Origin: Candidatus Magasanikiibacteriota bacterium
GTDB lineage: Bacteria > Patescibacteriota > Patescibacteriia > Magasanikbacterales > GWA2-37-8
DNA length: 64,000 bases
NCBI GenBank assembly: GCA_017991415.1
Contig: JAGOQR010000004.1
Coordinates: 17,549-81,548, forward strand
Direction: 5' to 3'
Positions 15,625-57,701 of the stretch are shown here, piece by piece. The position numbers and the translations under genes were made by a program. The notes beneath the pieces are model-generated. The model worked only from the letters and a program-made list of their open reading frames with translations, was not told the origin of the DNA and did no database searches. Every line of letters begins with the position of its first letter. Within the stretch, counting starts at the first letter, position 1.

Positions 15625-15678
15625 GTTGTTTAATTTTATATAATTTTATATACTGAGACAGTAGATATACAACATGTG

Positions 15679-34824: not shown

Positions 34825-35556
34825 ATGCAACCATTAATTAGTGTAATTATTCCAGTTTTTAACCACGCTCATACACTTAAAGCCTCTATAGAGAGTGTTT
34901 TTCGTCAAACCTATCGACCTCTCGAAATAATTGTAGTTAACGATGGCAGTACAGATAATTTTGATCAGGTGGTCGATGAATGTTTGCAACTTACCGAAAA
35001 CAATTGTATTGGTGCAGGAAGTTTGTTATCTATATTGTCTCAAGAAAATAGTGGTGCGCCAGCTGCGAGAAATAAAGGCTTTGCCGCTTCCAAAGGTGAG
35101 TATGTTATTTTTTGGGATGCAGATACCATGGCCGAAAATACTATGTTGCAAAAAATGTTTGACGCTCTGCAAAAAAATCCGCAAGCTGCTTATGCGTATA
35201 GTCAATTTAAATTTGGTTGGAAGGTTATGAAAAGCCAGCCGTTTGATGCAGAAAAATTAAAACAGCTAAACTATATAGATGCTACCTCGCTCGTTCGTCG
35301 CTCGGCTTTGAATCCTACTCCGTGGGATGAAAAATTAAAGCGTTTTCAAGATTGGGACCTGTGGCTTGGTTTGTTGGAGAAGGGGAAAACAGGTGTTTTT
35401 GTGTCCGAAGTTTTATATGCAAAAATAGTGAAAGGGAGAATGGGTATAAGTAATTGGTTACCTAGTTTTATGTTTAAGTTACCGTGGAAGACGAGTGGGG
35501 TAAAGAGGTATGAAGAGGCGAGGAGTGTTGTTTTGAGGAAATATAAAATAATATGA
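34825..35556 (+). CDS. Glycosyltransferase family 2
   Basis: ISVIIPVFNHAHTLKASIESVFRQTY...VVNDGSTDN...FWDADTMAE. GT-A fold with a DxD motif. Confidence 0.8.
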   Translation: MQPLISVIIPVFNHAHTLKASIESVFRQTYRPLEIIVVNDGSTDNFDQVVDECLQLTENNCIGAGSLLSILSQENSGAPAARNKGFAASKGEYVIFWDADTMAENTMLQKMFDALQKNPQAAYAYSQFKFGWKVMKSQPFDAEKLKQLNYIDATSLVRRSALNPTPWDEKLKRFQDWDLWLGLLEKGKTGVFVSEVLYAKIVKGRMGISNWLPSFMFKLPWKTSGVKRYEEARSVVLRKYKII

Positions 35557-36326
35557 ACTTGTTTTTTGAAACAAAATTAGCAGACAAATATACAAACCTT
35601 TCGCAAAAAGTAAGAGTTTTGACGGAAGATTGGGTCGATAGACAAGTTTATTGTCCAAACTGCGGGCATCTGGAAATTAATAAGTACGAAAATAATAAAC
35701 CCGTCGCTGATTTCTTTTGTTCTAATTGTAAAGAAGATTACGAATTAAAAAGTAAAAAAGATTCCGTTGGAGTAAAAATAATTGATGGCGCTTATCGAAC
35801 AATGATTGAAAGATTGCAAAGTACGAATAATCCAAATTTCTTTTTACTAAATTATGATTTAAGAGATTTCTCTGTTTTAAATTTTCTTGTTATTCCAAAG
35901 CACTTTTTTGTTCCGGGTATTATTGAAAAACGTAAAGCATTATCACAAACGGCTAGACGTGCTGGCTGGATTGGTTGTAATATTTTATTACAAAGTATTC
36001 CACAAACAGGAAAAATATTTTTTATAAAAAATCGTCAAATTGAATCAAGAGAGAAAGTCCTCGCAGGATGGAAAAAAACATTATTTTTGCGTGAACAAAA
36101 GGAGATTTCCGCAAAAGGGTGGCTGCTTGATATTATGAGGTATATAGACTTGCTCGGAAAGAAAGAATTTGTACTAGACGATGTTTATGCTTTTGAAAAA
36201 CCTTTAAGTAAATTACATCCTGAAAATAAACATGTTAAAGAAAAAATTCGTCAGCAATTACAAATCCTGCGCGATAAAGGTTACTTGGATTTTGTTTCTA
36301 TAGGGGTATATAGATTAGTAAATTAA
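35553..36326 (+). CDS. DpnI-like / Dam-replacing (DRP) family methyl-directed restriction endonuclease (G-m6A-TC specific, Type IIM)
   Basis: 257 aa. SQKVRVLTEDWVDRQVYCPNCGH...PVADFFCSNCKEDYELKSKK...ARRAGWIGCNILL...KEKIRQQLQILRDKGY closely parallels S. pneumoniae DpnI (ILTEDWVYRQ.YCPNCG...KIRQQLQILRDK), as recalled from memory of the DpnI sequence rather than a search. The start overlaps the GT2 stop by 4 nt. Confidence 0.75.
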   Translation: MNLFFETKLADKYTNLSQKVRVLTEDWVDRQVYCPNCGHLEINKYENNKPVADFFCSNCKEDYELKSKKDSVGVKIIDGAYRTMIERLQSTNNPNFFLLNYDLRDFSVLNFLVIPKHFFVPGIIEKRKALSQTARRAGWIGCNILLQSIPQTGKIFFIKNRQIESREKVLAGWKKTLFLREQKEISAKGWLLDIMRYIDLLGKKEFVLDDVYAFEKPLSKLHPENKHVKEKIRQQLQILRDKGYLDFVSIGVYRLVN

Positions 36327-38373: not shown

Positions 38374-38619
38374 ATGTATTACCTCTATATCCTGGAATGT
38401 GCAGATAAAACATTGTATACTGGTATCACCGTAGATTTAGAACGAAGAGTGCGCGAACACAATACCTCGGCTATTGGTGCAAAATATACGCGTGCCCGAA
38501 GGCCTGTGCGACTCGTATATAGTAAAAAATTTCGCAATCGGTCTACCGCTTCCAAAGCGGAAAGTAAAATAAAAAAACTGAGCAGGGAAGCAAAGCTACA
38601 TTTAATTTCTCTCGTATGA
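38374..38619 (+). CDS. GIY-YIG nuclease family protein (UPF0213-like)
   Basis: YLYILECADKTLYTGITVDLERRVREHN is a GIY-YIG core. ATG 38374 is preferred over GTG 38362. Confidence 0.85.
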   Translation: MYYLYILECADKTLYTGITVDLERRVREHNTSAIGAKYTRARRPVRLVYSKKFRNRSTASKAESKIKKLSREAKLHLISLV

Positions 38620-40292
38620 CGCAAGATCAGGCGCTTGATATTTTAAAAACTGGCGCTAATGTTTTTTTAACTGGTGAGCCTGGAGCAGGTAAAACACATA
38701 CCATCAATCAGTATGCGTCTTATTTGCGTACGAGAGCTATAGAGCCATCTATTACTGCTTCTACAGGTATTGCCGCTACTCATTTGGGTGGTATGACCAT
38801 TCATTCCTGGACTGGCATTGGTATTAAAAAATACTTGGATAAATATGAGTTAGATAAAATTTCTTCTACCGAATATCTGGCCAAACGTATTCGCCGCGCC
38901 AAGGTTCTTATTATCGACGAGGTGTCTATGCTTGGTCCCGAAACACTCGATATGGCCGATGCAGTTTGTCGAAATATTCGTCAAAACAATGACGCCTTTG
39001 GTGGGTTGCAAGTTATTTTTGTTGGTGATTTTTTTCAATTGCCGCCAATTGTGCGAAACGAAACAAGCCAAGACCCGCAAACCTCGATGCTCCAAGCGCC
39101 CAAAGCTCGTTTTGCCTACGACGCATCTGCGTGGCAGAGAGCCAGGCCAGTTATTTGTTATCTTACCGAGCAACACCGCCAAGATGACGATGCTTTTTTA
39201 CGTCTTCTTTCTGCTATTCGTACTAATAGTTTTGGCAGTTCTCATTTAGAAGAAATTAAAAACAGAAAAATATTTAGTGATAAGGGGATGGATAAAGCGG
39301 TAAAATTGTATACTCGTAATATAAATGTAGATCGAACTAATGATGAAATGCTTGCAACGGTGGTAAATCGACCAGTTACTTTTGAGATGAAAACAAAAGG
39401 TGCGCCAGCGCTCGTTGCAGCTCTGCAAAAAGGGTGCCTGTCTCCCGAAAAATTAATTCTCAAAGTTGGTGCCAAAGTAATGTTTACTAAGAATAATCCT
39501 AAAGAAGGATTTGTAAATGGTACGCTCGGTACGGTAGAAGGTTTTGATACATATATTGGTCTACCAATTATACGAACAAACGATGGTCGTAAAGTTATGG
39601 TAGAAGCTATGGATTGGAGTGTAGAAGAAAATGGTAAACCGCGCGCCACGATAACTCAGGTACCGCTCCGGCTCGCATGGGCAATTACGGTGCATAAAAG
39701 CCAAGGCATGAGTTTGGAAGAAGCGGTTATGGACCTAAGCGATGTGTTTGAGTTTGGCCAGGGGTATGTGGCCTTATCTCGTGTCCGTAGACTATCGGGG
39801 CTTCATTTGCTTGGCTGGAACGAGCAGGCATTTCAAGTTCACCCAGAAGTACTCCAAAAAGATAAAGATTTCCGAGTTAATTCCGAAGCTACAGAGCTTG
39901 CTTTTGGCAAAATTTCAAAAGAAGAATTGGCTATCATGCACAAAAATTTTATTAAAGCTTGTTCGGGAGATGAAGTGTCTGAAAAAGAAAAAGTAGTTTC
40001 CAAAGCAAATTCTGATAGTGAGGAGATAGTATACGCGCCAGTGACAGGGCCAGACTATGTACCAGGAAAAAGAAAAAATAGAACAAGTACCATGAAAGGT
40101 AAGGGGCATGAAAAAGTTCGAGAAAAACACCCTAATGCGTTTAAGACATGGAGTGAGCAGCAGGACGAAGAGCTCAAAGAATTTTTTGCCAACGGCGTAC
40201 CGCTCCAAGAAATTGCCGAAACGCTTGGTCGCAAATCGGGTGCTGTGGCTATGCGGCTTACTAAGCTTGGGTTGATGGAAGATTTGGATTAA
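38616..40292 (+). CDS. Pif1/RecD-like SF1B DNA helicase with C-terminal HTH domain
   Basis: Walker A LTGEPGAGKTHT, motif II IIDEVSML, motifs VFVGDFFQLPP and ITVHKSQGMSLE. The C-terminus WSEQQDEELKEFFANGVPLQEIAETLGRKSGAVAMRL is helix-turn-helix-like. The start overlaps the GIY-YIG stop. Confidence 0.85.
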   Translation: MTQDQALDILKTGANVFLTGEPGAGKTHTINQYASYLRTRAIEPSITASTGIAATHLGGMTIHSWTGIGIKKYLDKYELDKISSTEYLAKRIRRAKVLIIDEVSMLGPETLDMADAVCRNIRQNNDAFGGLQVIFVGDFFQLPPIVRNETSQDPQTSMLQAPKARFAYDASAWQRARPVICYLTEQHRQDDDAFLRLLSAIRTNSFGSSHLEEIKNRKIFSDKGMDKAVKLYTRNINVDRTNDEMLATVVNRPVTFEMKTKGAPALVAALQKGCLSPEKLILKVGAKVMFTKNNPKEGFVNGTLGTVEGFDTYIGLPIIRTNDGRKVMVEAMDWSVEENGKPRATITQVPLRLAWAITVHKSQGMSLEEAVMDLSDVFEFGQGYVALSRVRRLSGLHLLGWNEQAFQVHPEVLQKDKDFRVNSEATELAFGKISKEELAIMHKNFIKACSGDEVSEKEKVVSKANSDSEEIVYAPVTGPDYVPGKRKNRTSTMKGKGHEKVREKHPNAFKTWSEQQDEELKEFFANGVPLQEIAETLGRKSGAVAMRLTKLGLMEDLD

Positions 40293-41682
40293 CTTTTTTT
40301 GCAAGAAGTAACGTTATAAAAATAATTCCCATAACGTGAAATAGAGCAGGGGAAGTTAGGTTAATGACCAGTAATGCCAAGAGTGCCGCAGGCAACCCGT
40401 ATTGTTTGGCAATAAGACGTAAGGCGTATGCAACAAGTGATAACCAAATAAGCAGCCCAAGCATTCCCATTTCAGCTATAATTTCTAGATATCCCCAGTC
40501 GAAGTGCGGTGTAGTAATATTTTGTTTAAATACAGGGCTATATACTGTTACCGTATCGCCCAAACCATTACCCAGCACAGGGTGATTTTTTATTTTTTCG
40601 AGTATTTTTGGTAGTAGTAATACACGGCTTAGCGAGCTCTCTTCGGTCTGCGGGGCAGTTATGCTTTGGAGGCGTAGACCAAAAAATTCCCAACCTAAAT
40701 TTTTGCCCCGGCTAGTCGCGAGGTGTGCAGTGGTAAAAATTATAATAAAACCAATTACCGTGGCAGTAGAAACTACAAACCAGCGCTTCCAATTGGTTTT
40801 GGAAAATAAAAATAACAATCCAACGCCAAGTGCGAGAATATAAATACGGGTGAGGTTTACGGCGAGGATTGCCACAAGTGCCCCTGTTACTCCAAAGAGA
40901 ATTTTGTGTAATAGCGTGGTGGCTTCGTTGGTTTTTTTATCTACAATAATACGGCTGATAAAGAAAATTAAGAGTGGAATAAGCAGTAAATGTTCATTGA
41001 GAACAATGCGATAAAAATTAAAACCATACTCAGTAATTTTGCCACTGGCTATATCGCGAAACCAATGATAGTAGTTGTCTTGCAGCACAAGCAGTTTGCT
41101 AGAGAAACCAACAAGAGTTATATACATTAAGATACAGTTGCCGATAATAGCAGATAGAATCATGCCAAAAGTAATACGGCGGAAGGGTTCAGATTGTAAG
41201 AGTTGTTTGAGAGGAAAGTAATATAAAAAGAAAAAATAGGGGACAGTATCGGCAATAATTAAATGTGGAGCATGATGAAAGTAAAAACCATGAAAAACAG
41301 AAATGGCTGTAGTGATGAGTAAGCCTGTAAGGAGGTAGAAAATAGTTTTATTTTCTAAAAATAAGGTATATTTTTTTTCTTTTATTGTGTGATATAAAAA
41401 AATACCAAGAGAAGATATAAGCAAAAGTGTTCGGAGCGCTATTCCGTTTATTTCTAAAAAACTTCCTGCACCACCCAGTATTATTTCGGCAGCAATAATC
41501 AGCCAGCCCCGTATATCTTTTTTGAGTAAAAAATAAATAGCAGTGGCCAAAATACCAGCCGAAATAATCCAGTTTATAGGATTGGCCGTATATAGTGGTG
41601 TGCCAGGGCTAAAAAAATAAGAAAAAATTCTGATGGTAATATATATCATCAGCCCCCCTGTTATTTGTTTTTTCAAATTCAT
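40261..41682 (-). CDS. O-antigen ligase/polymerase family membrane protein (Wzy_C / WaaL-like)
   Basis: 473 aa, ~12 TM. A periplasmic loop carries HFDWGYLEIIAEMGMLG, matching the Wzy_C signature H-x-x-YLE...E.G. Its 3' end overlaps the convergent Pif1 gene by 32 nt. Confidence 0.7.
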   Translation of the reverse strand: MNLKKQITGGLMIYITIRIFSYFFSPGTPLYTANPINWIISAGILATAIYFLLKKDIRGWLIIAAEIILGGAGSFLEINGIALRTLLLISSLGIFLYHTIKEKKYTLFLENKTIFYLLTGLLITTAISVFHGFYFHHAPHLIIADTVPYFFFLYYFPLKQLLQSEPFRRITFGMILSAIIGNCILMYITLVGFSSKLLVLQDNYYHWFRDIASGKITEYGFNFYRIVLNEHLLLIPLLIFFISRIIVDKKTNEATTLLHKILFGVTGALVAILAVNLTRIYILALGVGLLFLFSKTNWKRWFVVSTATVIGFIIIFTTAHLATSRGKNLGWEFFGLRLQSITAPQTEESSLSRVLLLPKILEKIKNHPVLGNGLGDTVTVYSPVFKQNITTPHFDWGYLEIIAEMGMLGLLIWLSLVAYALRLIAKQYGLPAALLALLVINLTSPALFHVMGIIFITLLLAKKVNPNLPSTQA

Positions 41683-41697
41683 ACGTAGTTGGCGACT

Positions 41698-42615
41698 TTA
41701 TAATATCGCTTTATTAAAATTTTTATATCCATTCGCAAATACATCGGCTGTCATAGAATTTTTTCCTTCTAGCTGTAATTCGAGTATTTCTATGGCATCT
41801 TGTCCGCAGCCCACAAAAATATGTGCATCTTCGATTAAAACTTCGCCAGGCGGTATTGTTTTTTTTGCTTTGATTATTTTAAGAAGCTTTAATCTTTTAT
41901 TATTCCAGGTACACCAAATACCTGGCCAGGGAGTAAGGCCCTGGTATAGGTTATAGATAGTGTTTGCAGGCAACGCAAAGTCTATTTTGCCATTATCTTT
42001 GGTAAGTAGTTTGGTAAAGGTAGCTTTGGCATGATCTTGAGTTTGGGGTGTTATTTCGCCGCTCACATATCGGGGAAGGGTGTCTAAAAGCAATTTTGAG
42101 CCCTCTACAGCCATTTTTTGAGCCAAAGTAGTATATGTGTCGTCTAAAGCGATTGGTAAGCTGCTTTGAGCCAAAATTGGGCCATGATCGACCAGTGAAT
42201 CCATAATCATGATGGTGATGCCTGTTGTTTTTTCTCCTGTCATAAGCGCAGCTTGGATAGGGGATGCACCTCGATATGCAGGTAATAGAGAGCCATGTAC
42301 GTTTATCATTCCCTTTGGAAACGCATCGATAATATGTTGGGGAATAATAAGTCCGTATTGAGCCACAACGGCCAGTGAGTAGTTGCCCGTTTCTATAGAA
42401 TAATTTTTGAGAGATTCTGGTTGTTCTGTGTGCAGACCGTGTTTGGTTGCTAATTTTTTAACAGGAGATTCTTCAACTATCTGTTTGCGGCCAACTTTTC
42501 TATCTGGTTGCGTAAAAACTGTTTCCACTGAAAAAAGAGTATTAGAAAGAAGGCCGTCTAAAATAGTGGCGGCAAAATCTTGTGTACCGAAGAAGGCGAT
42601 TTTTATTTTTTCCAT
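41698..42615 (-). CDS. fmt: Methionyl-tRNA formyltransferase
   Basis: KIAFFGTQDFA...NVHGSLLPAYRGASPIQAALMTGEKTTGITIM. Confidence 0.9.
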   Translation of the reverse strand: MEKIKIAFFGTQDFAATILDGLLSNTLFSVETVFTQPDRKVGRKQIVEESPVKKLATKHGLHTEQPESLKNYSIETGNYSLAVVAQYGLIIPQHIIDAFPKGMINVHGSLLPAYRGASPIQAALMTGEKTTGITIMIMDSLVDHGPILAQSSLPIALDDTYTTLAQKMAVEGSKLLLDTLPRYVSGEITPQTQDHAKATFTKLLTKDNGKIDFALPANTIYNLYQGLTPWPGIWCTWNNKRLKLLKIIKAKKTIPPGEVLIEDAHIFVGCGQDAIEILELQLEGKNSMTADVFANGYKNFNKAIL

Positions 42616-42628
42616 GTAAGAGAATTAT

Positions 42629-43123
42629 TTACAAAACGTTTTCATCCAGACCGTGCAAATTTTTTGCTTTGGAGTTAAATAAAACGCCGTTTAGATGATC
42701 GATTTCGTGTTGGCAAATTCTGGCAAAAAAATTGGAGGCAATAAATTGAATTTTCTTGCCAGTAACATCAAGAGCGGTAACTTTTATTTTTTTATAGCGA
42801 CGTACTTTGCCATAAATTTTGGGCACAGACAAACAGCCTTCTTCGTCCCAGTCGCGAAGGATAGATGCTTTTTCAAAAGATGGGTTAATAAGAACCAGGT
42901 CTGCTTTTTTGCCTGGAGTAAAATCTTTGGCAATAACACATAACGCAATGGGTCGGGCCACTTGCACCGAAGCAATGCCAACGCCATTTTTGTAATACAT
43001 GGTTTCGATAAGGTCTTTGGTAAATTCTTTTATTTCGGCAGATTTAATTTCTTCGAGTGTTAAACTGCGAGAAACTTCTTTGAGCATGGGACTTTCTGCC
43101 TCTTTTGGAACGTTAAGAATCAT
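42629..43123 (-). CDS. def: Peptide deformylase
   Basis: Motifs GVGIASVQV, EGCLSVP and QHEIDHLNG. Confidence 0.95.
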   Translation of the reverse strand: MILNVPKEAESPMLKEVSRSLTLEEIKSAEIKEFTKDLIETMYYKNGVGIASVQVARPIALCVIAKDFTPGKKADLVLINPSFEKASILRDWDEEGCLSVPKIYGKVRRYKKIKVTALDVTGKKIQFIASNFFARICQHEIDHLNGVLFNSKAKNLHGLDENVL

Positions 43124-43129
43124 ATGTTT

Positions 43130-43212
43130 TTTGTCATCCTGAATGAAATGAAGGATCTCTGTCGGTTTGTTGTGCGAACAGAGATTCTTCGCGCTGCTCA
43201 GAATGACAGTGA
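43130..43212. other. ~85 nt nested imperfect palindrome in the priA-def intergenic spacer (candidate structured RNA / REP-like element / attenuator)
   Basis: Outer arms gtcatcctga / tcagaatgac (9 of 10 pair). Inner perfect 8-bp arms atctctgt / acagagat. It is locally more GC-rich than its surroundings. Confidence 0.35.
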
Positions 43213-43219
43213 GTATAAT

Positions 43220-45121
43220 TTAAGAAAATGATAGAATTGAATTTGGGTTAGGGTCTATTTTCCAGCTATCTGGCGTCTCGGAAAGTAGTAATTTGGTATT
43301 TTTTTTATAGTTTTCGTAGCCTATCTTGGCTAAAATTACGTACCAGTATTGGCCATTATAGTGATGTGGCGAAGTTTCCCAAGGCCCTAGTATTGTAATA
43401 TCTGAGGTGTTTTTGGTCAACTGAGTGAGTTTTGTAGCTAATTTTTCTGTCTCCTCAGCAGCTGTCTGTGCTGTAGTTGTGCCAGTGGCAAATTTTACCA
43501 AAAATTTGAAAGGTGGGTAGCCTAATGCTCGTCGTTCTTCTAATTGTTCTTTGTAAAAAGAGGCTGGGTCAAAGAGTGAAGCAAAAACAAGATGTTCGGG
43601 GTGGCTTGTTTGGATAACAAAGTCTGAGTTTGGTGAAAGATTGAATTGCGCATCACGGATTTGTTGCCATAAATTTTCTACAATTTTATATTCTGGAATA
43701 AAAAGGGAAGAATCTGCATCGAGAAATGCCATGAGTTTTATGTTACTCCAATCGATATGAGCCCAAGCCATTTGGGTGCCAATAATAATCTTGTCACCAG
43801 GTTTTTTTAATTTTTCGAGATCGTTTTCATCACTGTCAATACGAATAATTGCTCGGGTATCACTATGAGCAGTGATTTTTTTGATTAAATCTTCGGCTAA
43901 CTGTGTGCCAGCGCCATACATATTTACATTGGTGCCCTGGCATGTGGCGCATCTAAGCGGCATAGTCGTCGTGTAATGACAGTAATGGCAGCTGAGTTGA
44001 TTGGTGCTTTGGTGATAAGTAAGAGAAAGGTTGCATGAAGGACATTTTAAAACAGTGCCGCAATCGCGACAGCCAACATAACTTACGGTGCCACGCCTGT
44101 TGATAAAGAAAAAGATATCACCAGTTTTTATTTTTTTGTATGCTTCGAGCAGATCATGACTGAGTAAACTAAAATTTTTGAGACGACGTTGTGTGCGCAT
44201 GTCTATGATTTCTATCGGTTTTTGGATAGCTGTTATTTCTGCGCTTGGCGAGGTGTATACTTTTTTTTGCGCAAAAAATAATGTTTCAACGCTCGGAGTG
44301 TGCGCTGTAAAGATAAGTTCCGCATTGTGGCTTTTGGATAAAAATAAAGCTGCATCACGTGTGTGGAGACGAGGTGCCATGTCCCAGCTTTTGTAATTTG
44401 GATTACCTTCGTCATCTAAAATAATATGCTGCAAATTAAACCACGGTAAAAACAGCGCCGATCTGGTGCCAATGACAATATTTTTTTCTCCAGACCAGAT
44501 TTGAAGCCATTTGGAAAATAATTCTTTATCATTAAGTGTGCCGGTAATAGTAATAGTTTTATCTACAATAGCGTTCGGTAATAGTTTTTTAATTTTTTCT
44601 ATAGAATTTATTTCTGGAACTAAAATTAGTGTTTGGCCAGAAGTTTTTTGTATATGCTTTGTGAGGATTTCTTTTTTTTCTTCTACAGTTTTGTATAGTA
44701 ATAGTGTTGGTTTGCTCGGTGCGGTTTCTTTTTTGGTCACAGAAGAGGTCTCAAGTGATGAGTTGCTCTCGGCTAGTTTTTGAAGCTTCCTTTTTTGCAA
44801 AGGAATGAGATTGGTTTTTAATAAAAAACCAAGAGGTGTGTGATAAAACTCAGAGATATCTTTAATAAAAGCGAGCTGCTCTTTGGAAATAATAGATTTT
44901 TCGAAAATTATTTTGGTAATTGGTTTTAGCTTTGCCTCTGTCTGTTCCGTAGTAGGTTGAATATCAAAAATCACCCCAAATTCTTCTTTGCGACGAAACG
45001 GAATTGTTACCAGCTGTCCAATTTTTACTGTATGTTGTATTTTTTCTGGTACAGAATAATCTAAAAAAGGTAAGGACAGTGGCATTCGTTTGGCCAGAAT
45101 AACACGGACGATCATAAACAA
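43220..45121 (-). CDS. priA: Primosomal protein N' (PriA) homolog with degenerate helicase motifs
   Basis: N-terminal 3'-DNA-binding region, IVIGTRSALF, and a Cys-rich zinc region (CRDCGTVLKCPSCNLSLTYH...CHYCHY...CATCQG). Walker A is replaced by KTVEEKKEIL, DEEH is replaced by DDEG, and the motif VI arginines are absent. Confidence 0.85.
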   Translation of the reverse strand: MFMIVRVILAKRMPLSLPFLDYSVPEKIQHTVKIGQLVTIPFRRKEEFGVIFDIQPTTEQTEAKLKPITKIIFEKSIISKEQLAFIKDISEFYHTPLGFLLKTNLIPLQKRKLQKLAESNSSLETSSVTKKETAPSKPTLLLYKTVEEKKEILTKHIQKTSGQTLILVPEINSIEKIKKLLPNAIVDKTITITGTLNDKELFSKWLQIWSGEKNIVIGTRSALFLPWFNLQHIILDDEGNPNYKSWDMAPRLHTRDAALFLSKSHNAELIFTAHTPSVETLFFAQKKVYTSPSAEITAIQKPIEIIDMRTQRRLKNFSLLSHDLLEAYKKIKTGDIFFFINRRGTVSYVGCRDCGTVLKCPSCNLSLTYHQSTNQLSCHYCHYTTTMPLRCATCQGTNVNMYGAGTQLAEDLIKKITAHSDTRAIIRIDSDENDLEKLKKPGDKIIIGTQMAWAHIDWSNIKLMAFLDADSSLFIPEYKIVENLWQQIRDAQFNLSPNSDFVIQTSHPEHLVFASLFDPASFYKEQLEERRALGYPPFKFLVKFATGTTTAQTAAEETEKLATKLTQLTKNTSDITILGPWETSPHHYNGQYWYVILAKIGYENYKKNTKLLLSETPDSWKIDPNPNSILSFS

Positions 45122-45125
45122 TTAC

Positions 45126-45917
45126 CTACAGAACAAAATTAGCAGTAAGATAGCCGACACCAAAAGGAGCTTCGTACGCGTATGACTTATATGTATGTTG
45201 AAAGCCTTGGAGGATGCCCATTAAAATTAAGAACGAACGAAAGCCGCACTCCGCTGCATCTGCAACCATCTCTTTATCCATTTGCAGCATTCCCGCTAAA
45301 TTATGCGTAGAAAGAAGGTCTTGAATTTTTTTATCAAATTCTGGACCAGCGGCATTGTAGCCGGCAGGCGCGTCGGTAAAGAGAGCATGTGATAAATCAC
45401 CCGAAGCAATAACTGCTACTCGTTTATTTGTTTCTAAGATTTTTTCTTTTAAGATATTGCCAAATGCAACATGAGTTTTCCAGTCAAGATCACAAAAACC
45501 AATTGGAATTATCTTTGTATTTTTTAGGTGAGGGGTAAGATAGGCGAGTGGTATGGAAGCTCCATGATCCAGGTTTGGTTCACTTACCATGGTAGAAGGT
45601 ATATGTTCTTTTTTTAAAGCCTCTACAATTCCCGTTGTTAAAGAGCGTTCTCCAGGAAATTTTAATCTGGTAGCTAGGTCTCCAAAAGAACGGAGGTCTG
45701 TTTGGTATTGAGGGTTTTGGTGTACGGTAAAAGCCTCTTTGAAATAACTGCCATGCGGAGAGATTATAATAAGGATATCTGGGTGGGTAATATAGAGATC
45801 CTTTTCTAATTGCTCCATTGCGTTTTTTGTTTTTTCTACTTTTTTTATTTCACCATGGCCAATAGCAGGGATTAAGAAGGGTGGGTGAGGAGTAATAGCA
45901 GCAAATACAAGCGACAT
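45126..45917 (-). CDS. LigB-superfamily protein (class III extradiol dioxygenase / DODA- or Memo-like)
   Basis: AITPHPPFLIP...IIISPHG...DHGASIPL...IASGDLSHAL parallels the His-containing motifs of the DODA/LigB catalytic subunit. Confidence 0.55.
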   Translation of the reverse strand: MSLVFAAITPHPPFLIPAIGHGEIKKVEKTKNAMEQLEKDLYITHPDILIIISPHGSYFKEAFTVHQNPQYQTDLRSFGDLATRLKFPGERSLTTGIVEALKKEHIPSTMVSEPNLDHGASIPLAYLTPHLKNTKIIPIGFCDLDWKTHVAFGNILKEKILETNKRVAVIASGDLSHALFTDAPAGYNAAGPEFDKKIQDLLSTHNLAGMLQMDKEMVADAAECGFRSFLILMGILQGFQHTYKSYAYEAPFGVGYLTANFVL

Positions 45918-45926
45918 ATAGATGGG

Positions 45927-48149
45927 TTAATTATTAGTGGTTATTTTTACCTCTCCGCTTGTTATCCATTTAGCCATTTTATTTGCTTCTGCGTTTTTGA
46001 GATCCTGGCCACCCATAGTAATGATGGTATATTGTTTTTTATTTTTTAGAGATTCTACAAGCAGTATAGTGACAACGCCAGCTTGGTCGGTCGAGCCAGT
46101 TTTACTGGCAATTATTTTGTAGTTTTTTGTTCCTACTGGTGCAGATACGGCTAAGCCGCTTACGCTATGTTTGGCAGCGCCAACCTTACTTACTACCTCT
46201 TTAAAGGAGTAGCTGCTTTTTGTTAAAGCTGTTTTGATTGTACTGTTTTCTAAGATTTTAGTAGTAATTTTTAAGAGATTTCGAGGAGTAGATTTATTCT
46301 TTGGATCTAAGCCAGTAACTTCGGTAATGATCGTGTCGTCGGCACCCCAATTATTTAATCTGGTTTTTATTTTATTAATAAAATCAGCTTCGGATACGCC
46401 GCTATTTTGGGCAACCATGCGAGCCGTGTTGTTTGTTGAGCCGATTATCATGGCGCTGAGCAGGTCGGTATTTTTTATGGTAGCTCCATTTTTTAAATTT
46501 AAAACTCTGCCAGTTGATTTTTGTTTGGCGCTTGAATATACAGAAGATTGTGTTAGGTTAAAGTCTTGGTTAAGCGCTTCAAATGCTACAAGCAATTTTG
46601 TGGCCGAAGCAATGGGGCGAGTTTGGTCTATATTTTTTCCAGAGATAATACGGCCGCTTGGGTATTCTGCGATAAGATAGGCAGGAATGCTTGTTTTAAA
46701 CAAGTCATCTATTTTTATTTCACTATCACCAAGGTATTTATTGCGTGAAGAGATAAGGCTGCCATTTATAAAAATAGGTTCGCCTTCCAAAATATTGCTC
46801 GCAGTAACACGGCTAATAGAAAGCACATTTTCTCGTTTATATCCCAAAGCAGCAAAGGTATCTACATCGGCAATAAGACGTTTTTTACCATTTTCTATAA
46901 CGTAGATATTATTACTGTCCGTTACACGGAGCAATGTTCCGTCTTTAAAGCTCGTAGGTAGATTAGCCACTTCGAGATTTTTTATTTCGGTGAGTAGATG
47001 TTTTTCTATGCTGAGGTTTGCGTAGTTTGTATTAATAATATTTTTGTCTGTAATAGGGTATAAGATATTATCTTTAAAAAGATAGTACGTGTTATTAAGA
47101 TCTGTAATTTGGTAAATTACACCCGTTGGAGCAGTGGTAGATTCGGTAATGGTTGTTCCGAGGGGGTAGCCTGCAATATCAGCGTCGGAAATTTCCACAA
47201 ACTCTTCTGGATTATAGCCAATTTTTTTAACTACTTCTGCAGAAGCAAAAGGTCGTAAGGTGTCGTAGTCTAAAAGATAAAAAGTAGAAGGGGTTTTGAG
47301 GATAGAATAATTTGGGAATGATATATCTGGGCCAGTTTGGTAGTTGCTGAGTTCGGACTCTGAAACAGTGACAATCATTTTTGGATCTGCGCGACTGAGT
47401 AATGTGGCTTGATTTTTAAATTTACGCTTGATGTTATTTTGAATGAGCCATACTTCGGTGTTTGCGTCAGAGCGAAGCAAGCTGCCATTAGGATAGATTT
47501 GGGCAAACCAGGTGTTCCAAATGCGAAAAAAGTTCTGGTTGCCATGGAAGTGGGGAGTATATGTATATAAAAAAGCAGTTGCCCAGCTTTGAGGGATAAT
47601 TGGTTGATTATCAATTATAGTTGTTTGATCTTTCTTTTTGACATACGAAAGATTGCTGTTGTTGTAGTACCACCTAATAACACCAGCGGCATTGTCCACT
47701 TGTTTGCCAAAGCCTTTGAATTTTAATAGTTTAGGATCGCTCAGAGAGCAGCTATCGCAGACGCCGTATCCAGCTGCCCAGTCAAGTTGTTTCTGAGTGG
47801 GAGTGTCGTCAGTAATGAGACTTTGTTCTTTCTGTAGGGTAACGAGGAGATATTTTGGGTTAATTTGGTACTGTTGAGAGGCTTGGTAGATAATTTCTGA
47901 AGCAGGCTTAATTTGGCCATTTAAATCTTCGGACCGTAAAGTTGCCAAATAGCTTCCTCGATCTTCGAGAAATTTTTGAATATCTTGCACCGTCCAGTTG
48001 GCAGTGCTCTGCATTTCCTCGTCAGAAATGATAAATTGAGGATTAAATGCCACTTGAGCAGCAGATGCAGATAAAAGAGGGGAAAAACTAAAAATGCCGA
48101 GTAGTAAAAGGATGGTATATGTCGAGATTTGTTTATTATTCATATGCAA
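45927..48149 (-). CDS. Secreted D-alanyl-D-alanine carboxypeptidase (peptidase S11/PBP5-like) with ~450 aa N-terminal extension
   Basis: Signal peptide MHMNNKQISTYTILLLLGIFSFSPLLSASAAQ. The C-terminal domain has SxxK (ASATKLL), an SxN-like motif (GSTNN) and KTG (SKTGST). The N-terminal domain is unassigned. Confidence 0.65.
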   Translation of the reverse strand: MHMNNKQISTYTILLLLGIFSFSPLLSASAAQVAFNPQFIISDEEMQSTANWTVQDIQKFLEDRGSYLATLRSEDLNGQIKPASEIIYQASQQYQINPKYLLVTLQKEQSLITDDTPTQKQLDWAAGYGVCDSCSLSDPKLLKFKGFGKQVDNAAGVIRWYYNNSNLSYVKKKDQTTIIDNQPIIPQSWATAFLYTYTPHFHGNQNFFRIWNTWFAQIYPNGSLLRSDANTEVWLIQNNIKRKFKNQATLLSRADPKMIVTVSESELSNYQTGPDISFPNYSILKTPSTFYLLDYDTLRPFASAEVVKKIGYNPEEFVEISDADIAGYPLGTTITESTTAPTGVIYQITDLNNTYYLFKDNILYPITDKNIINTNYANLSIEKHLLTEIKNLEVANLPTSFKDGTLLRVTDSNNIYVIENGKKRLIADVDTFAALGYKRENVLSISRVTASNILEGEPIFINGSLISSRNKYLGDSEIKIDDLFKTSIPAYLIAEYPSGRIISGKNIDQTRPIASATKLLVAFEALNQDFNLTQSSVYSSAKQKSTGRVLNLKNGATIKNTDLLSAMIIGSTNNTARMVAQNSGVSEADFINKIKTRLNNWGADDTIITEVTGLDPKNKSTPRNLLKITTKILENSTIKTALTKSSYSFKEVVSKVGAAKHSVSGLAVSAPVGTKNYKIIASKTGSTDQAGVVTILLVESLKNKKQYTIITMGGQDLKNAEANKMAKWITSGEVKITTNN

Positions 48150-48152
48150 TCC

Positions 48153-48181
48153 AGTATATCATAGCTTGGTTTTTGGCTCAA
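48153..48181 (-). promoter_or_regulatory. Candidate sigma70 promoter for the secreted carboxypeptidase gene (minus strand)
   Basis: The reverse complement reads TTGAGC, a 17 bp spacer, then TATACT, ending ~4 nt before the ATG. Confidence 0.4.
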
Positions 48182-48206
48182 TTGGCTATTTTTACCCTAT
48201 TATTAT

Positions 48207-48233
48207 AATAACCCTGATATAGTCAGGGTTATT
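48207..48233 (-). terminator. Hairpin downstream of clpB (probable terminator)
   Basis: Perfect 11-bp inverted repeat aataaccctga-tatag-tcagggttatt, flanked by A/T-rich sequence rather than a clean U-tract. Confidence 0.5.
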
Positions 48234-48245
48234 ATGCAGATCAGT

Positions 48246-50876
48246 TTATTTTTCGAGGGCAATTTTGTTTTTAATGACTGTTACCCGTACTCTATCTCCC
48301 GCTTTAAACTTCTTTTCTATCAAATCCATAGCAAGAAGATCTAATACTTCGCTTTGGATAACCCGTTTGAGGGGTCTGGCGCCATAATTTTCATCGAAGC
48401 CTTTTTTAGCCAAGTATTTTTCGGCGCTCGTATCGACTTCAAGAGAGATTTTTTGTTCAAGCAATCTAGTTTTGACTTTTTCGAGCTGCAACTTAACGAT
48501 AAATGAAATATCCTTTTCTTTGAGCGAGTGGAAGATAATAATATCATCGATACGATTGAGGAATTCTGGCTTGAAATGATCTTTTAATCCTTCTAGGATT
48601 TTATCTTTCATTGTTTTTTCGCTGTTTTTTGTTTCCGTAGCGTTAAAACCAAATTCACCTTTTTTATTCCAATCTAAAATTAAATTACTGCCAATATTAC
48701 TTGTCATAATGACAACAGTATTTTTGAAGTTTACTTTGCGGCCTTTGGCATCGGTAACATGTCCGTCGTCTAAAATTTGTAATAAAATATTAAAGACATC
48801 GGGGTGAGCTTTTTCAATTTCATCAAATAGAATAACTGAATATGGTTTGCGACGTACCAGTTCGGTGATTTGGCCGCCCTCTTCAAAGCCCACATAGCCA
48901 GGAGGGGAGCCGATAATTTTTGAAACAGCATGTTTTTCCATATATTCACTCATATCAACGCGAATCATGGAATTTTCTGTATCAAACATAAATTCGGCTA
49001 ATGCTTTGGCGAGCTCTGTTTTTCCAACACCAGTTGGGCCAAGGAAGATAAAAGAACCAATCGGTCGATTGGGTTCGGCAATACCTGCGCGGGAGCGACG
49101 AATAGCGTTGGCAACTGCTTTTACTGCCTCTTCTTGACCAACAACTCGTTTGGTTAAATCTTCTTCCATGTGGGTAAGTTTTTCGGCTTCGCTCATGAGC
49201 ATTTTGTATACAGGAATTCCTGTCCATCTGGCTACGACTCGCGCAATGTCTTGTTCGGTTACTTCTTCTTTTAGAATGCCATTTGTTCTTTGAATGTTCG
49301 ATAATTTTTGTTCTTCTTGTCGAACTTCTGCTTCTAAATTAGGAATTTTTCCATATCTAATCTCGGCAACTTTTTGTAAATCACCACGACGTTCTTCTAT
49401 TTCTGCTTTCTGACGCAAGTCTTCTATCTCTTTTTTATGTTTGTGAATACTGGTTATAATTTCTTTTTCATTTTGCCATCTGGCTTCCAGCTCCGTGCTT
49501 TTATCTTTTAGCTCAGCAAGTTCCTTTTCAATTTTTTCTAAACGTTCCTGTGCCTCCTGTTCTTTTTCTTTTTTAAGCGCTCGTTTTTCAATTTCCATTT
49601 TGATCATGATTCGTTTCATTTTATCGAGTTCGTCAGGCATGGAATCTATTTGTAATCGTAAGCCAGAGGTTGCTTCGTCAATAAGGTCAATCGCTTTATC
49701 TGGCAAGAAACGATCCATAATATAGCGTTGTGATAAATCAACTGCTGCAATTATAGCGGTATCAGTAATACGAACACCATGGTGTACCTCATATTTTTCT
49801 TTGATACCACGCAATATAGCAATAGCATCTTCGCGAGATGGTTCACTTACCATAACTGGCTGGAAACGACGTTCCAGCGCTGCATCTTTTTCAATATATT
49901 TTTGGTACTCTTTAAGAGTAGTCGCGCCAATGGTATGGAGTGTGCCTCGAGCTAGTGCAGGCTTAAGCATGTTACTTGCATCCATAGAACCTTCCGAAGA
50001 TCCTGCGCCCACAATAGTATGAAGTTCGTCAATAAATAAAATTATTTTTCCAGCTGATTGATCTATTTCTTTTAATACTGCTTTGAGCCTATCTTCAAAT
50101 TCGCCACGAAATTTAGTGCCAGCAAGTAGAGAGCCAACATCAAGAGCAATAACTTCTTTATTTTTTAATGATTCTGGCACATCGCCGTTTACAATTCGTT
50201 GAGCCAAGCCTTCGGCAATGGCAGTTTTACCAGTTCCTGGTTCACCGATAAGTACTGGGTTATTTTTGGTACGACGACTGAGAATTTGCATAACACGACG
50301 AATCTCATCATCACGACCGATAACAGGGTCTAGCTTTTCTTTAAACGCAAGATCAGTAAGATTTTTGCCGTATTTTTCTAGCACATTGTATTTGCTTTCT
50401 GGTTCTGGGCCGTCCACTTTTTGGTTACCACGAATGCTCGCGAGGATTTTTAATGATTCGTCATAAGTGATTCCTTGAGCAGCAAGCAGTTCGTTAATAG
50501 GGTTATGGCCAATAAGAAAAGAGAGGAATAAATGCTCTACACTAATATATTCATCTCCTATTTTTTTTGCTTCACCTACGGCTGTTTGAAAAATATAAAT
50601 CATGCCTTGACTGAGCAGAATTTGACCAACACCGCCAGCAGGCATGCTTCCAGGTTGTTTCGGTAACTTATCGATAAGCGACTGTGCACCTGCTTTGAGC
50701 GCGATGATATTAGCGTTAAATTTATGTAAAACCGAAACAACAACGCCGTCGGCATCCTCTAAAAGGGCAAAAAACAAATGCGGGGGCTCTATTTGGGGCT
50801 GTCCATTTTCGTAGGCAATTCGAGCTGCATTTTGCATTATTTCCTGAGATTTATTGGTAAAATTTTGAGGAATCAT
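48246..50876 (-). CDS. clpB: Chaperone ClpB (Hsp100 disaggregase)
   Basis: N domain, D1 ([22 protein letters not shown]), a long coiled-coil M domain, D2 ([10 protein letters not shown]) and a C-terminal domain. 876 aa. Confidence 0.95.
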
Positions 50877-54371: not shown

Positions 54372-54962
54372 ATGGGTGAAAAAATAAGTGGTTCTAGAGA
54401 AGTAGGAGCCGAAAAAGAAAAAAAAATAATTGTGGAAGTGGGTACGGACGGCAAGCCATTTTTTTTGATTGGCCATAGAAAATTGAAGCCCGATGAACTG
54501 TACATTTCTATAGATCAAGATATTTCTCGCGCACGTGCTACTGACCGCATGGCGCATCGATTGAACGTAGAAAACACAATGGCTGTTAACGCAGATGCTC
54601 GCACTCTACCTTTTGCAGACAGTACAGTCGATGAAATGGTTTTTACTAATGTTTTTGGTGAAGGAGGTAAAACTGCGCCAAATTATTTTGATAGCATGCT
54701 TACAGAAGCTGTGAGGGTGTTAAAAAAGAACGGTACAATCCTTATCACCGAAACCTATACGCCCAGCCTTGTTCCCGACCGTATGCGTGTGGTGCAGGAT
54801 GTAAACGGCACTTTTGGGATAGACGAGAGTTATTACAAAACTAAGGGGTTGGAAATATCGGCACTTAGCTTTGATAACAAAGATATTAGTCAGCAGCACA
54901 AATTCGATTTGGGTGCAGATTTTTTTGATCATAATTTTCAGTTAACCTTAATTAAAAAATAG
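54372..54962 (+). CDS. Class I SAM-dependent methyltransferase-like protein (degenerate motif I)
   Basis: NADARTLPFADSTVDEMVF and LKKNGTILI match Methyltransf_11-type motifs. Motif I reads VEVGTDGKP rather than DxGxGxG. Confidence 0.5.
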   Translation: MGEKISGSREVGAEKEKKIIVEVGTDGKPFFLIGHRKLKPDELYISIDQDISRARATDRMAHRLNVENTMAVNADARTLPFADSTVDEMVFTNVFGEGGKTAPNYFDSMLTEAVRVLKKNGTILITETYTPSLVPDRMRVVQDVNGTFGIDESYYKTKGLEISALSFDNKDISQQHKFDLGADFFDHNFQLTLIKK

Positions 54963-57684: not shown

Positions 57685-57701
57685 TGCCATCATATATTAA
57701 T

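Follow-up and report, generated by a model that had tools for sequence, protein, structure and literature searches.

The open reading frame (ORF) that lies next to def and fmt at this locus raises the question of whether a PriA that no longer carries the motifs of a helicase can still be a PriA under selection and, if so, what it would do at a replication fork. A sequence-only reading of the DNA had described an intact ORF of 633 aa, co-oriented with def and fmt and followed by a spacer of about 95 nt, and had proposed that it encodes a conserved but enzymatically inactive PriA, recognising forks without unwinding them. We analysed the gene in its window, i.e. the whole 64-kb stretch of DNA taken from a genome of ~0.8 Mb, to which our statements on gene content apply. 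The locus comprises:

43220..45121, minus strand: priA ORF, 633 aa from TTG 45121 or, likelier, 631 aa from ATG 45115; stop codon at 43220-43222
43124..43219, minus strand: spacer between priA and def, 96 nt, with a conserved long hairpin
42629-43123, minus strand: def, downstream of priA and co-oriented
41698-42615, minus strand: fmt, downstream of priA and co-oriented

The ORF bears no frameshifts, and its orientation and the length of the spacer are as had been described. The figure of 633 aa applies to initiation at the TTG, but the ATG at 45115, two codons inside that ORF, is the likely start, and the resulting 631-aa product is 100% identical to an NCBI protein (P0001) annotated as 'primosomal protein N'' of a Candidatus Magasanikbacteria bacterium MAG. 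The order priA-def-fmt is an ancient arrangement, and the gene at 43220..45121 occupies this orthologous genomic position. Among 49 loci of the clade with degenerate PriAs, def was found in 40 and fmt in 43, and the longer synteny S11 - Memo - priA - def - fmt - Wzy_C is kept in about 40. The spacer hairpin (MFE -31.9 kcal/mol, z = -5.46) belongs to this operon context and lies outside the protein. It is identical at 88 of 96 nt to the spacers of two related loci (L081 and L082), its motif is not repeated elsewhere within the 64-kb window, and an Rfam scan of 41000-48500 gave no match.

The product is a PriA ortholog. At the level of the whole protein, it matched the NCBIfam model TIGR00595 (priA) with 298.7 bits for a cut-off of 230.35, all PRK05580 sub-models staying far under their own cut-offs. 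PriA chains from the PDB aligned with E ~1e-58, in a core alignment that begins only after Walker A and ends at residue 622. The AlphaFold (AF2) model (pLDDT 87.6, pTM 0.86) found its best Foldseek matches in fork-bound E. coli PriA (8fak_H, TM 0.75) and in the PriA delta-WH structure 6dcr (TM 0.71); the nine top matches were all PriA, with E-values from 1e-43 to 1e-29, and the next family, Mfd, appeared at 3.5e-9. The protein is built from a 3'-end-binding domain (3'BD), two RecA-like lobes with an inserted Cys-rich region (CRR), and a C-terminal domain (CTD):

44801..45115, minus strand: 3'-end-binding domain, residues 1-105 (Pfam PF17764 PriA_3primeBD, 3.2e-17, 62.6 bits for a cut-off of 22.7)
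44714..44800, minus strand: linker, residues 106-134, 29 aa (pLDDT 53-68), where E. coli PriA has its winged-helix domain
44216..44713, minus strand: RecA-like lobe 1, residues 135-300, the predicted ATPase-dead helicase domain 1 (AF2 model and Foldseek)
43931..44080, minus strand: Cys-rich region, residues 346-395, four CxxC pairs (Pfam PF18319 Zn_ribbon_PriA, 9.3e-9)
43571..43930, minus strand: second part of RecA-like lobe 2, residues 396-515, which holds motifs V and VI
43223..43570, minus strand: C-terminal domain, residues 516-631 (pLDDT ~90 or more)

The 3'BD also matched the N-terminal domain structure 2d7e (E 2.4e-5), and the residues of its pocket are recognisable: D19 and Y20 correspond to E. 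coli D17 and Y18, and K64 to K61. Y20 is kept in all 41 degenerate homologues that we compared, K64 in 33. There is no winged-helix (WH) domain between the 3'BD and lobe 1, a stretch that falls ~85 aa short of its E. coli counterpart (residues 110-200); since short canonical PriAs of 635-690 aa exist and the WH domain is not universal in the family, its absence is compatible with PriA membership. The CRR is inserted inside helicase lobe 2 and has the four CxxC pairs of a PriA, with all eight cysteines (C349/352/358/361/376/379/389/392) present; seven are invariant among 65 family members and C379 is at least 90% conserved, a pattern consistent with two predicted Zn sites. Within the same region, H368 corresponds to the E. 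coli CRR-UP contact H455, and this column is H in 32/41 degenerate homologues. The CTD scored just under the Pfam PriA_C cut-off (1.1e-4, 23.4 bits for 26.9).

The motor tells a different story from the rest of the protein. We compared it in 25 canonical PriAs and in the 41 degenerate homologues, the direct alignments drawing on E. coli PriA and on Firmicutes or Bacteroidota PriAs from GTDB loci, and found its motifs replaced at the following positions:

44672..44695, minus strand: former Walker A (motif I), YKTVEEKK where canonical PriAs have GVTGSGKT
44405..44425, minus strand: degenerate motif II, IILDDEG where canonical PriAs have IVIDEEH
44294..44311, minus strand: degenerate motif III, FTAHTP where canonical PriAs have LGSATP
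43754-43789, minus strand: half-kept motif V, with IIIGTQ kept and KG lost
43631-43657, minus strand: erased motif VI, RDAQFNLSP

Between canonical PriAs and the degenerate clade, conservation drops from 0.92 to 0.30 in Walker A, from 0.91 to 0.45 in motif III, and from 0.85 to 0.27 in motif VI. The columns of K230, D320, E321, T358, K544, Q580, R584 and R587 are occupied by these residues in 25/25 canonical PriAs, and those of T231 and G545 in 24/25, while all ten are variable in the degenerate homologues. At E321, for instance, the degenerate clade has D in 19 cases, E in 7, and other residues in the remainder, the Magasanikbacteria protein carrying D. The first half of motif V behaves otherwise, T539 being kept in 39/41. 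The alignment with E. coli PriA therefore confirms the three losses proposed beforehand: the segment given as KTVEEKKEIL does stand at the aligned GVTGSGKT site, DEEH reads DDEG, and the arginine cluster of motif VI is gone, IRDAQFNL aligning with canonical QVAGRAGR and the R584 and R587 columns being unconserved. Canonical motifs displaced to another part of the protein, which would have undone this reading, are ruled out, as a regex scan found no GxxxxGK[ST], DExH or GRxGR anywhere in it, and a Pfam scan gave no DEAD or ResIII match, both of which are found in a canonical ortholog from Candidate Phyla Radiation (CPR) bacteria. The GK[ST] pattern of four relatives lies at unrelated positions. 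A weak Pfam Helicase_C match at residues 149-221 (E 0.005) was rejected as a functional motif: it falls in lobe 1, and hence represents a cross-match of the RecA fold. None of the hallmarks of an active SF2 enzyme (Walker A, a DExH motif II, SAT, the QxxGRxGR arginine fingers) is present, and from the replacement of motifs I, II, III, VI and the second half of V we infer that ATPase and helicase activity has been lost.

One can ask whether hydrolysis could persist through non-canonical residues, or in a composite site to which DnaB, a loader or a neighbouring subunit of an oligomer contributes in trans. K147 sits in the Walker-lysine column, where 26/41 degenerate homologues have Lys or Arg; D234, the motif II Asp, is kept in 31/41; and a second, weaker nucleotide site of unknown location has been reported for E. 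coli PriA (PMC5778457). Yet the glycine-rich loop is absent, the site being modelled as a 3-residue turn after strand beta-1 followed by helix alpha-1, which starts at V144 and places K147 in an acidic V-E-E-K helical context. Clade-wide, moreover, the catalytic Glu, the Ser/Thr of motif III, the Lys-Gly of motif V, and the Gln and both Arg fingers of motif VI are unconserved, and the replaced positions drift freely between lineages, which is how a site released from selection should behave. A hidden ATPase of this kind appears very improbable.

If the motor is gone, the elements that hold DNA are not:

44612..44638, minus strand: motif Ia, GQTLILVPE
44450..44479, minus strand: motif Ib, IVIGTRSALF, identical to E. 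coli
44354..44401, minus strand: aromatic-rich loop (ARL) / motif IIa, PNYKSWDMAPRLHTRD, the most conserved segment of the family
44090..44116, minus strand: motif IV, IFFFINRRG, with R340 and R341 at the positions of E. coli R427 and R428

From canonical to degenerate PriAs, conservation goes from 0.66 to 0.68 in motif Ia, from 0.77 to 0.70 in Ib, from 0.62 to 0.59 in the ARL (family consensus NYKSWDMAPR at a threshold of at least 80%), from 0.81 to 0.67 in motif IV, and from 0.60 to 0.59 in the CRR. The R427 column is R in 36/41 degenerate homologues; at the R428 column, 24 have R and 10 have K. [quoted passage not shown] The sequence-only reading was thus right in listing the 3'BD, the CxxC zinc-binding insertion and the CTD as retained, although the IVIGTRSALF segment that it took for motif Ia is motif Ib.

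Loss of motifs could also be the mark of a decaying pseudogene, or of an annotation artefact, with selection relaxed in a reduced genome. The genome is indeed reduced, and several ATPase-type motifs in the window are degenerate, including the defective D1 P-loop of the ClpB-like ORF at 8269-11049. Selection and conservation data refute this explanation, which we consider barely conceivable. Compared with an 88%-identical ortholog, priA has a dN/dS of 0.098 (0.010 for def and 0.152 for fmt), with values of 0.04-0.16 in every domain, and the ORF stays intact and of the same length in the homologues recovered, down to ~27% identity. Across 65 family members, 41 columns are invariant and ~80 more are at least 90% conserved, and the predicted fold is confident. 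Because of this dN/dS and this conservation, priA is not a pseudogene. What purifying selection maintains is the DNA-binding side of the protein: the pocket of the 3'BD, motifs Ia, Ib and IV, the first half of motif V, the ARL, and the CRR together with its hinge contacts.

Hundreds of relatives have likewise lost the motor; they belong to Magasanikbacteria, Sungbacteria, Portnoybacteria and further lineages of the Parcubacteria group. Nearly all of the full-length homologues listed in searches seeded with degenerate PriAs lacked the ATPase motifs, and among the matches listed only ten were canonical PriAs, at the distant end. Taxonomic labels needed some care, as many loci labelled 'uncultured Gammaproteobacteria' are Magasanikbacteria-type genomes. 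Likewise, an apparent extension of the loss to Saccharibacteria was rejected, since exact protein matches put one of the two loci concerned (L055) in the Parcubacteria group, within a family that has Portnoybacteria as its named members, and the other (L060) in Sungbacteria. A comparison of CPR relatives, suggested together with the original proposal, hence shows that the loss runs through the whole of a large clade of Parcubacteria type but does not extend to all CPR: every motif is kept in Torokbacteria, in one Peregrinibacteria protein and in other PriAs from Patescibacteria. Canonical and degenerate PriAs are interleaved in E-value lists, which could suggest multiple independent losses within CPR. 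We set this aside because all PriAs lacking Walker A cluster together, as sister to canonical CPR PriAs, in 89/100 bootstraps of a neighbour-joining tree, a method in which fast-evolving degenerate sequences may attract each other.

PriA is normally a single-copy gene, and a degenerate copy could be an accessory protein or a regulatory decoy if a canonical priA were present elsewhere in the genome. We inspected 64 kb, and another PriA, still active, or an accessory ATPase may be encoded outside this window. Such redundancy nonetheless seems most unlikely to us: the gene sits at the locus that corresponds to that of the canonical PriA in Torokbacteria, the GTDB scan found one locus per assembly among the 79 kept, and the dN/dS given above falls within the range of the neighbouring housekeeping genes.

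The in silico tests of motif loss, DNA-binding elements and fold all agree with the initial proposal of a PriA that would recognise forks without unwinding them. We consider it probable that this PriA ortholog has become a pseudohelicase, acting as an ATP-independent scaffold for fork recognition and primosome assembly. In such a mechanism the 3'BD would bind the 3' end of the leading strand where a fork has been abandoned, and the dead helicase core, the CRR and the CTD would close round the single-stranded lagging-strand template, in a state like the CRR-UP state of E. coli PriA. The resulting platform would recruit, directly or via a loader or SSB, the replicative helicase, which is encoded in the window:

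13960-15429: DnaB, replicative helicase

The degenerate PriA would neither translocate nor unwind, and a fork whose lagging arm is duplex would depend on a different helicase or on a nuclease, or would not be a substrate at all. The window also encodes RecR, YbaB and a PIF1-like helicase. Among the ~55 window ORFs scanned with Pfam, no DciA, SSB, PriB, DnaT, DnaD or DnaI was seen; this set does not include the ORFs at 54372-54962, 56476-57684, 57684-58685, 62579-63439 and 63443-63913. As the sequence-only reading proposed, the motor loss may also be connected with restart primosome partners that have disappeared or changed in a reduced genome.

The absence of a known partner from the ORFs scanned also fits a protein that has left restart altogether, and become a PriA-like DNA binder working in fork protection or capping, in recombination or DNA uptake, or as a structure-specific regulator. 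CPR bacteria have an unusual and reduced DNA metabolism, the whole motor and the WH domain have been lost, and the clade has acquired invariant motifs of its own (e.g.: KSWDMAPR and LFIPEYK). We judge this change of function unlikely, if less so than a cryptic ATPase or a redundant copy. The gene remains in the ancestral Memo - priA - def - fmt position, shared with canonical CPR PriA, every element for fork recognition and ssDNA capture is conserved, and there are no added domains pointing to a new activity. Besides, a PriA with a dead ATPase is known to support restart in E. coli, and the same is inferred for Deinococcus.

Extending the pseudohelicase scaffold to the whole clade is a broader claim, for and against which we see the case as evenly balanced. 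A large and ancient Parcubacteria-type clade (Magasanikbacteria, Sungbacteria, Portnoybacteria and relatives) would have restarted replication with an ATPase-less PriA since a single ancestral loss, the protein serving as a pure clamp for the fork junction and the lagging template, and handing on DnaB without partners of the PriB, DnaT or DnaD type. If this is true, these would be minimal natural PriAs, in which the surfaces sufficient for helicase reloading could be tested directly, and a considerable share of bacterial diversity would do without the 'universally conserved' helicase activity of PriA. The family can be seen as a candidate natural separation-of-function mutant: the 3'BD pocket, motifs Ia, Ib and IV, the ARL, the CRR hinge residues and the CTD would mark the scaffold role, and the elements serving only the motor would be those lost. 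A compact protein of 631 aa without a WH domain could also be of use in structural and biochemical studies of ATP-independent helicase reloading. The automatic label 'replication restart helicase' probably over-states the activity of degenerate PriAs.

We found no paper discussing CPR PriA in the literature, and the comparison with known systems begins with the canonical relative from Candidatus Torokbacteria (PIZ56789.1, P0234). This protein of 665 aa is ~30-35% identical to the degenerate PriA and among its nearest canonical relatives in the tree. It has no WH-sized insert, an ARL of the 'YKQWDQNPRY' type, and the same LigB/Memo - priA - fmt neighbourhood. It retains GSGKT, DEEH, SATP and QVSGRTGR and matches Pfam DEAD, ResIII and Helicase_C, so it is presumably an active helicase.

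Among the closest known systems are also the PriAs of E. coli (b3935; PDB 8fak, 6dcr) and K. pneumoniae (structures 4nl4 and 6dgd). E. coli PriA shares fold and domain order with the Magasanikbacteria protein at ~24-26% identity, together with the 3'BD pocket, the position of the ARL, the motif IV arginines and the four CxxC pairs; its CRR-UP contact residues H455 and D513 are both matched. The lack of a WH domain sets the Magasanikbacteria protein apart from E. coli PriA and makes it resemble the engineered delta-WH construct 6dcr. The SSB-tail site (the E. coli R697 column) is unconserved in non-enterobacterial PriAs, canonical and degenerate alike. PriB, DnaT and PriC are proteobacterial partners of E. 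coli PriA and are not expected in Magasanikbacteria. E. coli PriA K230R (priA300) has no ATPase or helicase activity, yet restart via the PriA-PriB pathway works (PMC5778457); there a single point mutation is involved, whereas the Magasanikbacteria PriA naturally lacks all ATP motifs.

The parallel with Deinococcus, already raised by the sequence-only reading, is borne out by Lopper, Boone & Morrow 2015 (PMC4504706). There, D. radiodurans PriA is described as a pseudohelicase in which binding to forks and to DnaB persists; its motifs I and II are off consensus, it is retained by a whole lineage (Deinococcus-Thermus), and it is thought to be a DNA-binding, DnaB-recruiting restart scaffold in organisms without PriB or DnaT. 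The survey covers 100 sequences from 18 phyla, and the legends describe no CPR bacteria. Loss of ATPase, fork binding and DnaB binding have been measured for D. radiodurans, and are predicted for the Magasanikbacteria PriA. The concept of a PriA without a motor is therefore already known from E. coli priA300 and D. radiodurans PriA, and this is not a new kind of system. Both natural cases descend from a helicase-type PriA by loss of catalytic motif residues. Their origins are independent, because the degenerate clade branches next to canonical PriAs of CPR bacteria, and Deinococcus-Thermus is a phylum unrelated to these. Deinococcus keeps a P-loop-like motif in which Lys is changed to Arg (GKT to GRT), while in Magasanikbacteria the glycine loop is fully replaced, and motifs III, VI and the second half of V are erased as well; the missing WH domain is a further difference. 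The Magasanikbacteria PriA is hence, as a putative case, the second natural PriA pseudohelicase after Deinococcus, of independent origin and more thoroughly eroded.

The priA gene is a single uninterrupted frame on the minus strand, encoding 633 aa from a TTG or 631 aa from an ATG at 45115, two codons further in. The shorter form is 100% identical to the NCBI 'primosomal protein N'' of a Candidatus Magasanikbacteria bacterium, which places the window in a CPR/Patescibacteria genome. As the sequence-only reading had stated, the ORF is intact and co-oriented with def and fmt; the spacer it put at ~95 nt measures 96 nt.

Genes and spacer around priA (window GC ~38%)
41698-42615, minus strand: fmt, downstream of priA, co-directional
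42629-43123, minus strand: def, downstream of priA, co-directional
43124-43219, minus strand: priA-def spacer, 96 nt, with a long hairpin
43220-45121, minus strand: priA
45126-45917, minus strand: LigB/Memo-like gene (AmmeMemoRadiSam system B-type), directly upstream of priA
45927-48149: S11 D-Ala-D-Ala carboxypeptidase-like gene, upstream of priA

The LigB/Memo-like gene is separated from priA by 4-10 nt, here and at locus L083 (3579-4943). No AMMECR1 lies between the two in the window; in Torokbacteria the LigB/Memo-like gene comes together with AMMECR1 and a radical-SAM gene. The spacer folds as a single long hairpin (MFE -31.9 kcal/mol, z = -5.46 vs shuffles) and is identical at 88/96 positions to the homologous spacer of L081 and L082, against pS ~0.4 at synonymous sites of the flanking genes, with the differences clustering in or beside the apical loop. 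Rfam gave no match, no T-run follows the hairpin, and the window has no second copy; the spacer may serve def-fmt as a structured leader or processing site that has been conserved.

The protein has the fold and domain order of PriA. It scores 298.7 bits against NCBIfam TIGR00595 'replication restart helicase PriA' (cut-off 230) and matches PriA chains of E. coli and K. pneumoniae in the PDB at E ~1e-58, with the core alignment beginning at residue 157 (E. coli 241), just past Walker A. Two of the domains said to be kept are clearly there: the N-terminal 3'-end-binding domain (PriA_3primeBD, 3e-17; pocket Asp-Tyr present) and the four-CxxC zinc-binding insertion, or Cys-rich region (CRR; Zn_ribbon_PriA, 9e-9; 8/8 cysteines). 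The C-terminal domain follows the PriA fold in the model, although its own Pfam score (PriA_C) falls slightly below threshold. The Pfam scan gave no DEAD, no ResIII and no correctly positioned Helicase_C. An AlphaFold2 model built with 65 homologues is confident (pLDDT 87.6, pTM 0.86), and its nine best PDB structure matches are all PriA, led by fork-bound E. coli PriA (8fak_H, TM 0.75) and an engineered variant without the winged helix (6dcr, TM 0.71); Mfd, the family that follows, is weaker by 30 orders of magnitude. In the model and the alignment the winged-helix domain is missing, with a 29-residue low-confidence linker in its place.

Alignment with E. coli PriA (NC_000913), further canonical PriAs (those with ATPase motifs) and CPR relatives shows, at the level of sequence, that all nucleotide-binding motifs are lost, and bears out the replacements first read for Walker A, motif II (DEEH to DDEG) and the motif VI arginine cluster.

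Motor motifs in canonical PriAs and in the query
Motif I (Walker A): canonical GVTGSGKT, query YKTVEEKK
Motif II: canonical IVIDEEH, query IILDDEG
Motif III: canonical LGSATP, query FTAHTP
Motif V: canonical IGTQMLAKG, query IGTQMAWAH
Motif VI: canonical QVAGRAGR, query IRDAQFNL

The model has a three-residue turn between strand beta-1 (137-140) and helix alpha-1, which starts at V144; an acidic helix N-terminus thus takes the place of the glycine-rich phosphate loop. Column conservation over 25 canonical and 41 Walker-A-less (degenerate) PriAs falls on average from 0.92 to 0.30 in motif I, 0.91 to 0.45 in III and 0.85 to 0.27 in VI. Eight residues found in 25/25 canonical PriAs (K230, D320, E321, T358, K544, Q580, R584 and R587, E. 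coli numbering) and two found in 24/25 (T231, G545) are variable in the degenerate set, a few members of which retain DE[EQ][HQ] at motif II.

The elements that contact DNA are still present. The query keeps motif Ia (LILVPE), Ib (IVIGTRSALF), IV (INRRG), the first half of V and, after motif II, the aromatic-rich loop (ARL), NYKSWDMAPRLHTRD. IVIGTRSALF, first read as the motif Ia region, is motif Ib and is identical to E. coli. From canonical to degenerate PriAs conservation is level in Ia (0.66 to 0.68), ARL (0.62 to 0.59) and CRR (0.60 to 0.59), and drops slightly in Ib (0.77 to 0.70) and IV (0.81 to 0.67). DNA and hinge residues are conserved among the 41 degenerate proteins: Y18 (41/41), the ARL Pro and T539 (39/41 each), R427 (36/41), R334 (34/41) and H455 (32/41). 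Published work on E. coli PriA has the ARL crosslinking, at the junction, to the template of the lagging strand (PMC5175346); ssDNA in the pore is contacted by R427 and R428, and the CRR-UP state is stabilised by H455 (PMC13594977). Drift of motor residues together with conservation of DNA and hinge residues makes the pattern selective, with the motor gone and the DNA track kept.

Could the gene be a pseudogene? Against its 88%-identical ortholog L081, recovered with its DNA, priA has a dS of 0.66 and a dN/dS of 0.098 (0.04-0.16 per domain; def 0.010, fmt 0.152), and 41 columns do not vary among 65 family members, each 42-88% identical to the query. Together with the uninterrupted ORF, these values rule out a pseudogene and show, from coding sequence, that the DNA-binding and CRR elements are retained under purifying selection. 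A canonical Candidatus Torokbacteria PriA (PIZ56789.1) lies in the order LigB/Memo - (AMMECR1) - priA - fmt, and the block S11 - Memo - priA - def - fmt - Wzy_C recurs in ~40/49 degenerate-clade loci. The query is therefore the resident priA ortholog with its motifs lost in place and, as far as the 64-kb window covers this genome, not a paralog; a second priA may still lie elsewhere in it.

The degenerate state is distributed clade-wide at the orthologous locus. The best 120 hits to the query include 119 full-length proteins, none with any ATPase motif. A separate, exhaustive HMMER search over 1.84 billion cluster representatives gave 16,570 matches at E <= 1e-3 (6,672 at E <= 1e-30), and only three of its best 150 (down to 30% identity) had a genuine Walker A. 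Among GTDB species representatives, Walker A and motif VI patterns were absent from 49/49 Patescibacteria-type loci (27-66% identity) and present in 30/30 non-CPR loci (Bacteroidota, Firmicutes, others), all but one of which also matched motif II (DEEH or DEEQ). Taxonomic names of relatives are depositor annotations of MAGs. Exact matches to NCBI proteins (100% identity) assign the PriA of locus L060 to Candidatus Sungbacteria and that of L055 to Parcubacteria group bacterium GW2011_GWC2_42_6, in a family where the members with names are Candidatus Portnoybacteria; searches seeded with each found a separate family of motif-less PriAs around it. Many 'binchicken'/SRP-derived MAG records in GTDB (L003, L005-L007, L010, L055, L060, others) go by titles such as 'uncultured Gammaproteobacteria', 'Saccharibacteria' or 'Thermodesulfobacteriota', yet their PriA and synteny are of Magasanikbacteria, Sungbacteria or Portnoybacteria type; the seeded searches show several of these titles to be unreliable, and they are unfit for taxonomy.

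Neighbour joining of 66 PriAs puts the 41/41 Walker-A-less proteins in one clade (89/100 bootstraps; Magasanikbacteria-type subclade, 98/100), sister to canonical CPR PriAs, a distance-based result that long-branch attraction could inflate. The single clade favours one ancient loss, after which former active-site residues would have drifted freely. The loss thus spans one large clade but is not CPR-wide, since Torokbacteria, one Peregrinibacteria protein and others have canonical PriA.

Replication and recombination genes in the window
12999-13598, minus strand: recR, clustered with ybaB/ebfC and dnaB
13626-13928, minus strand: ybaB/ebfC, clustered with recR and dnaB
13960-15429, minus strand: dnaB, intact P-loop ARPSVGKT
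38616-40292, plus strand: PIF1/RecD-like SF1 helicase, intact Walker A GEPGAGKT, 3 kb from priA

The proposal of a conserved, inactive PriA that recognises forks agrees with the lost ATPase motifs, the kept DNA elements and the dN/dS. The 3'-end-binding domain would recognise abandoned forks, the dead core, CRR and C-terminal domain would close round the single-stranded lagging-strand template, and PriA would form a platform on which DnaB lands, directly or via SSB or some loader. The window ORFs that were scanned showed no DciA, SSB, PriB, DnaD or DnaI-like protein. A further enzyme would be required where the lagging arm of a fork is duplex; the PIF1-like helicase, whose gene keeps its position in the closest relatives (L081, L003, L004, L006, L007), is a speculative lead for such remodelling.

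Other ORFs of the window drew attention. A ClpB/ClpC-like ORF of 926 aa (8269-11049, plus strand), in which Pfam detects just the D2 AAA_2 module and lid, has the D1 P-loop GDHGVGRKT, with an extra Arg before Lys, and an N-terminal CxxC...CxxC motif with hydrophobic segments; by its sequence, D1 is a candidate for another degenerate ATPase domain in this genome. An ordinary two-P-loop ClpB lies at 48246-50876. A 701-aa ORF with no Pfam match (15676-17781, plus strand) adjoins a TrwB/VirD4-like coupling ATPase of 704 aa (18825-20939, plus strand), and a DpnI-family methyl-directed restriction endonuclease gene lies at 35553-36326 (plus strand).

PriA function without a motor was accepted before the present case: E. 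coli K230R sustains restart by the PriA-PriB pathway (PMC5778457), and D. radiodurans PriA, the likeness first suggested, lacks ATPase and helicase activity yet binds ssDNA, forks and DnaB (PMC4504706). By analogy, the query would act as the scaffold documented for these two proteins. A 2017 review names Deinococcus as the sole exception to PriA helicase conservation (PMC5778457), and our literature search found no paper on PriA motif loss in CPR/Patescibacteria. The query PriA is a clean natural separation-of-function variant, spanning a large share of uncultured bacterial diversity. We file it as a putative, independently evolved PriA pseudohelicase, of a class already known and not a new kind of system. 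Its closest known counterpart, the Deinococcus-Thermus pseudohelicase, shares the idea and differs in lineage and lesion: there, as described, Lys is changed to Arg inside a retained P-loop and motif II is weak, whereas here motifs I, II, III, V (second half) and VI are replaced wholesale and there is no winged-helix domain.
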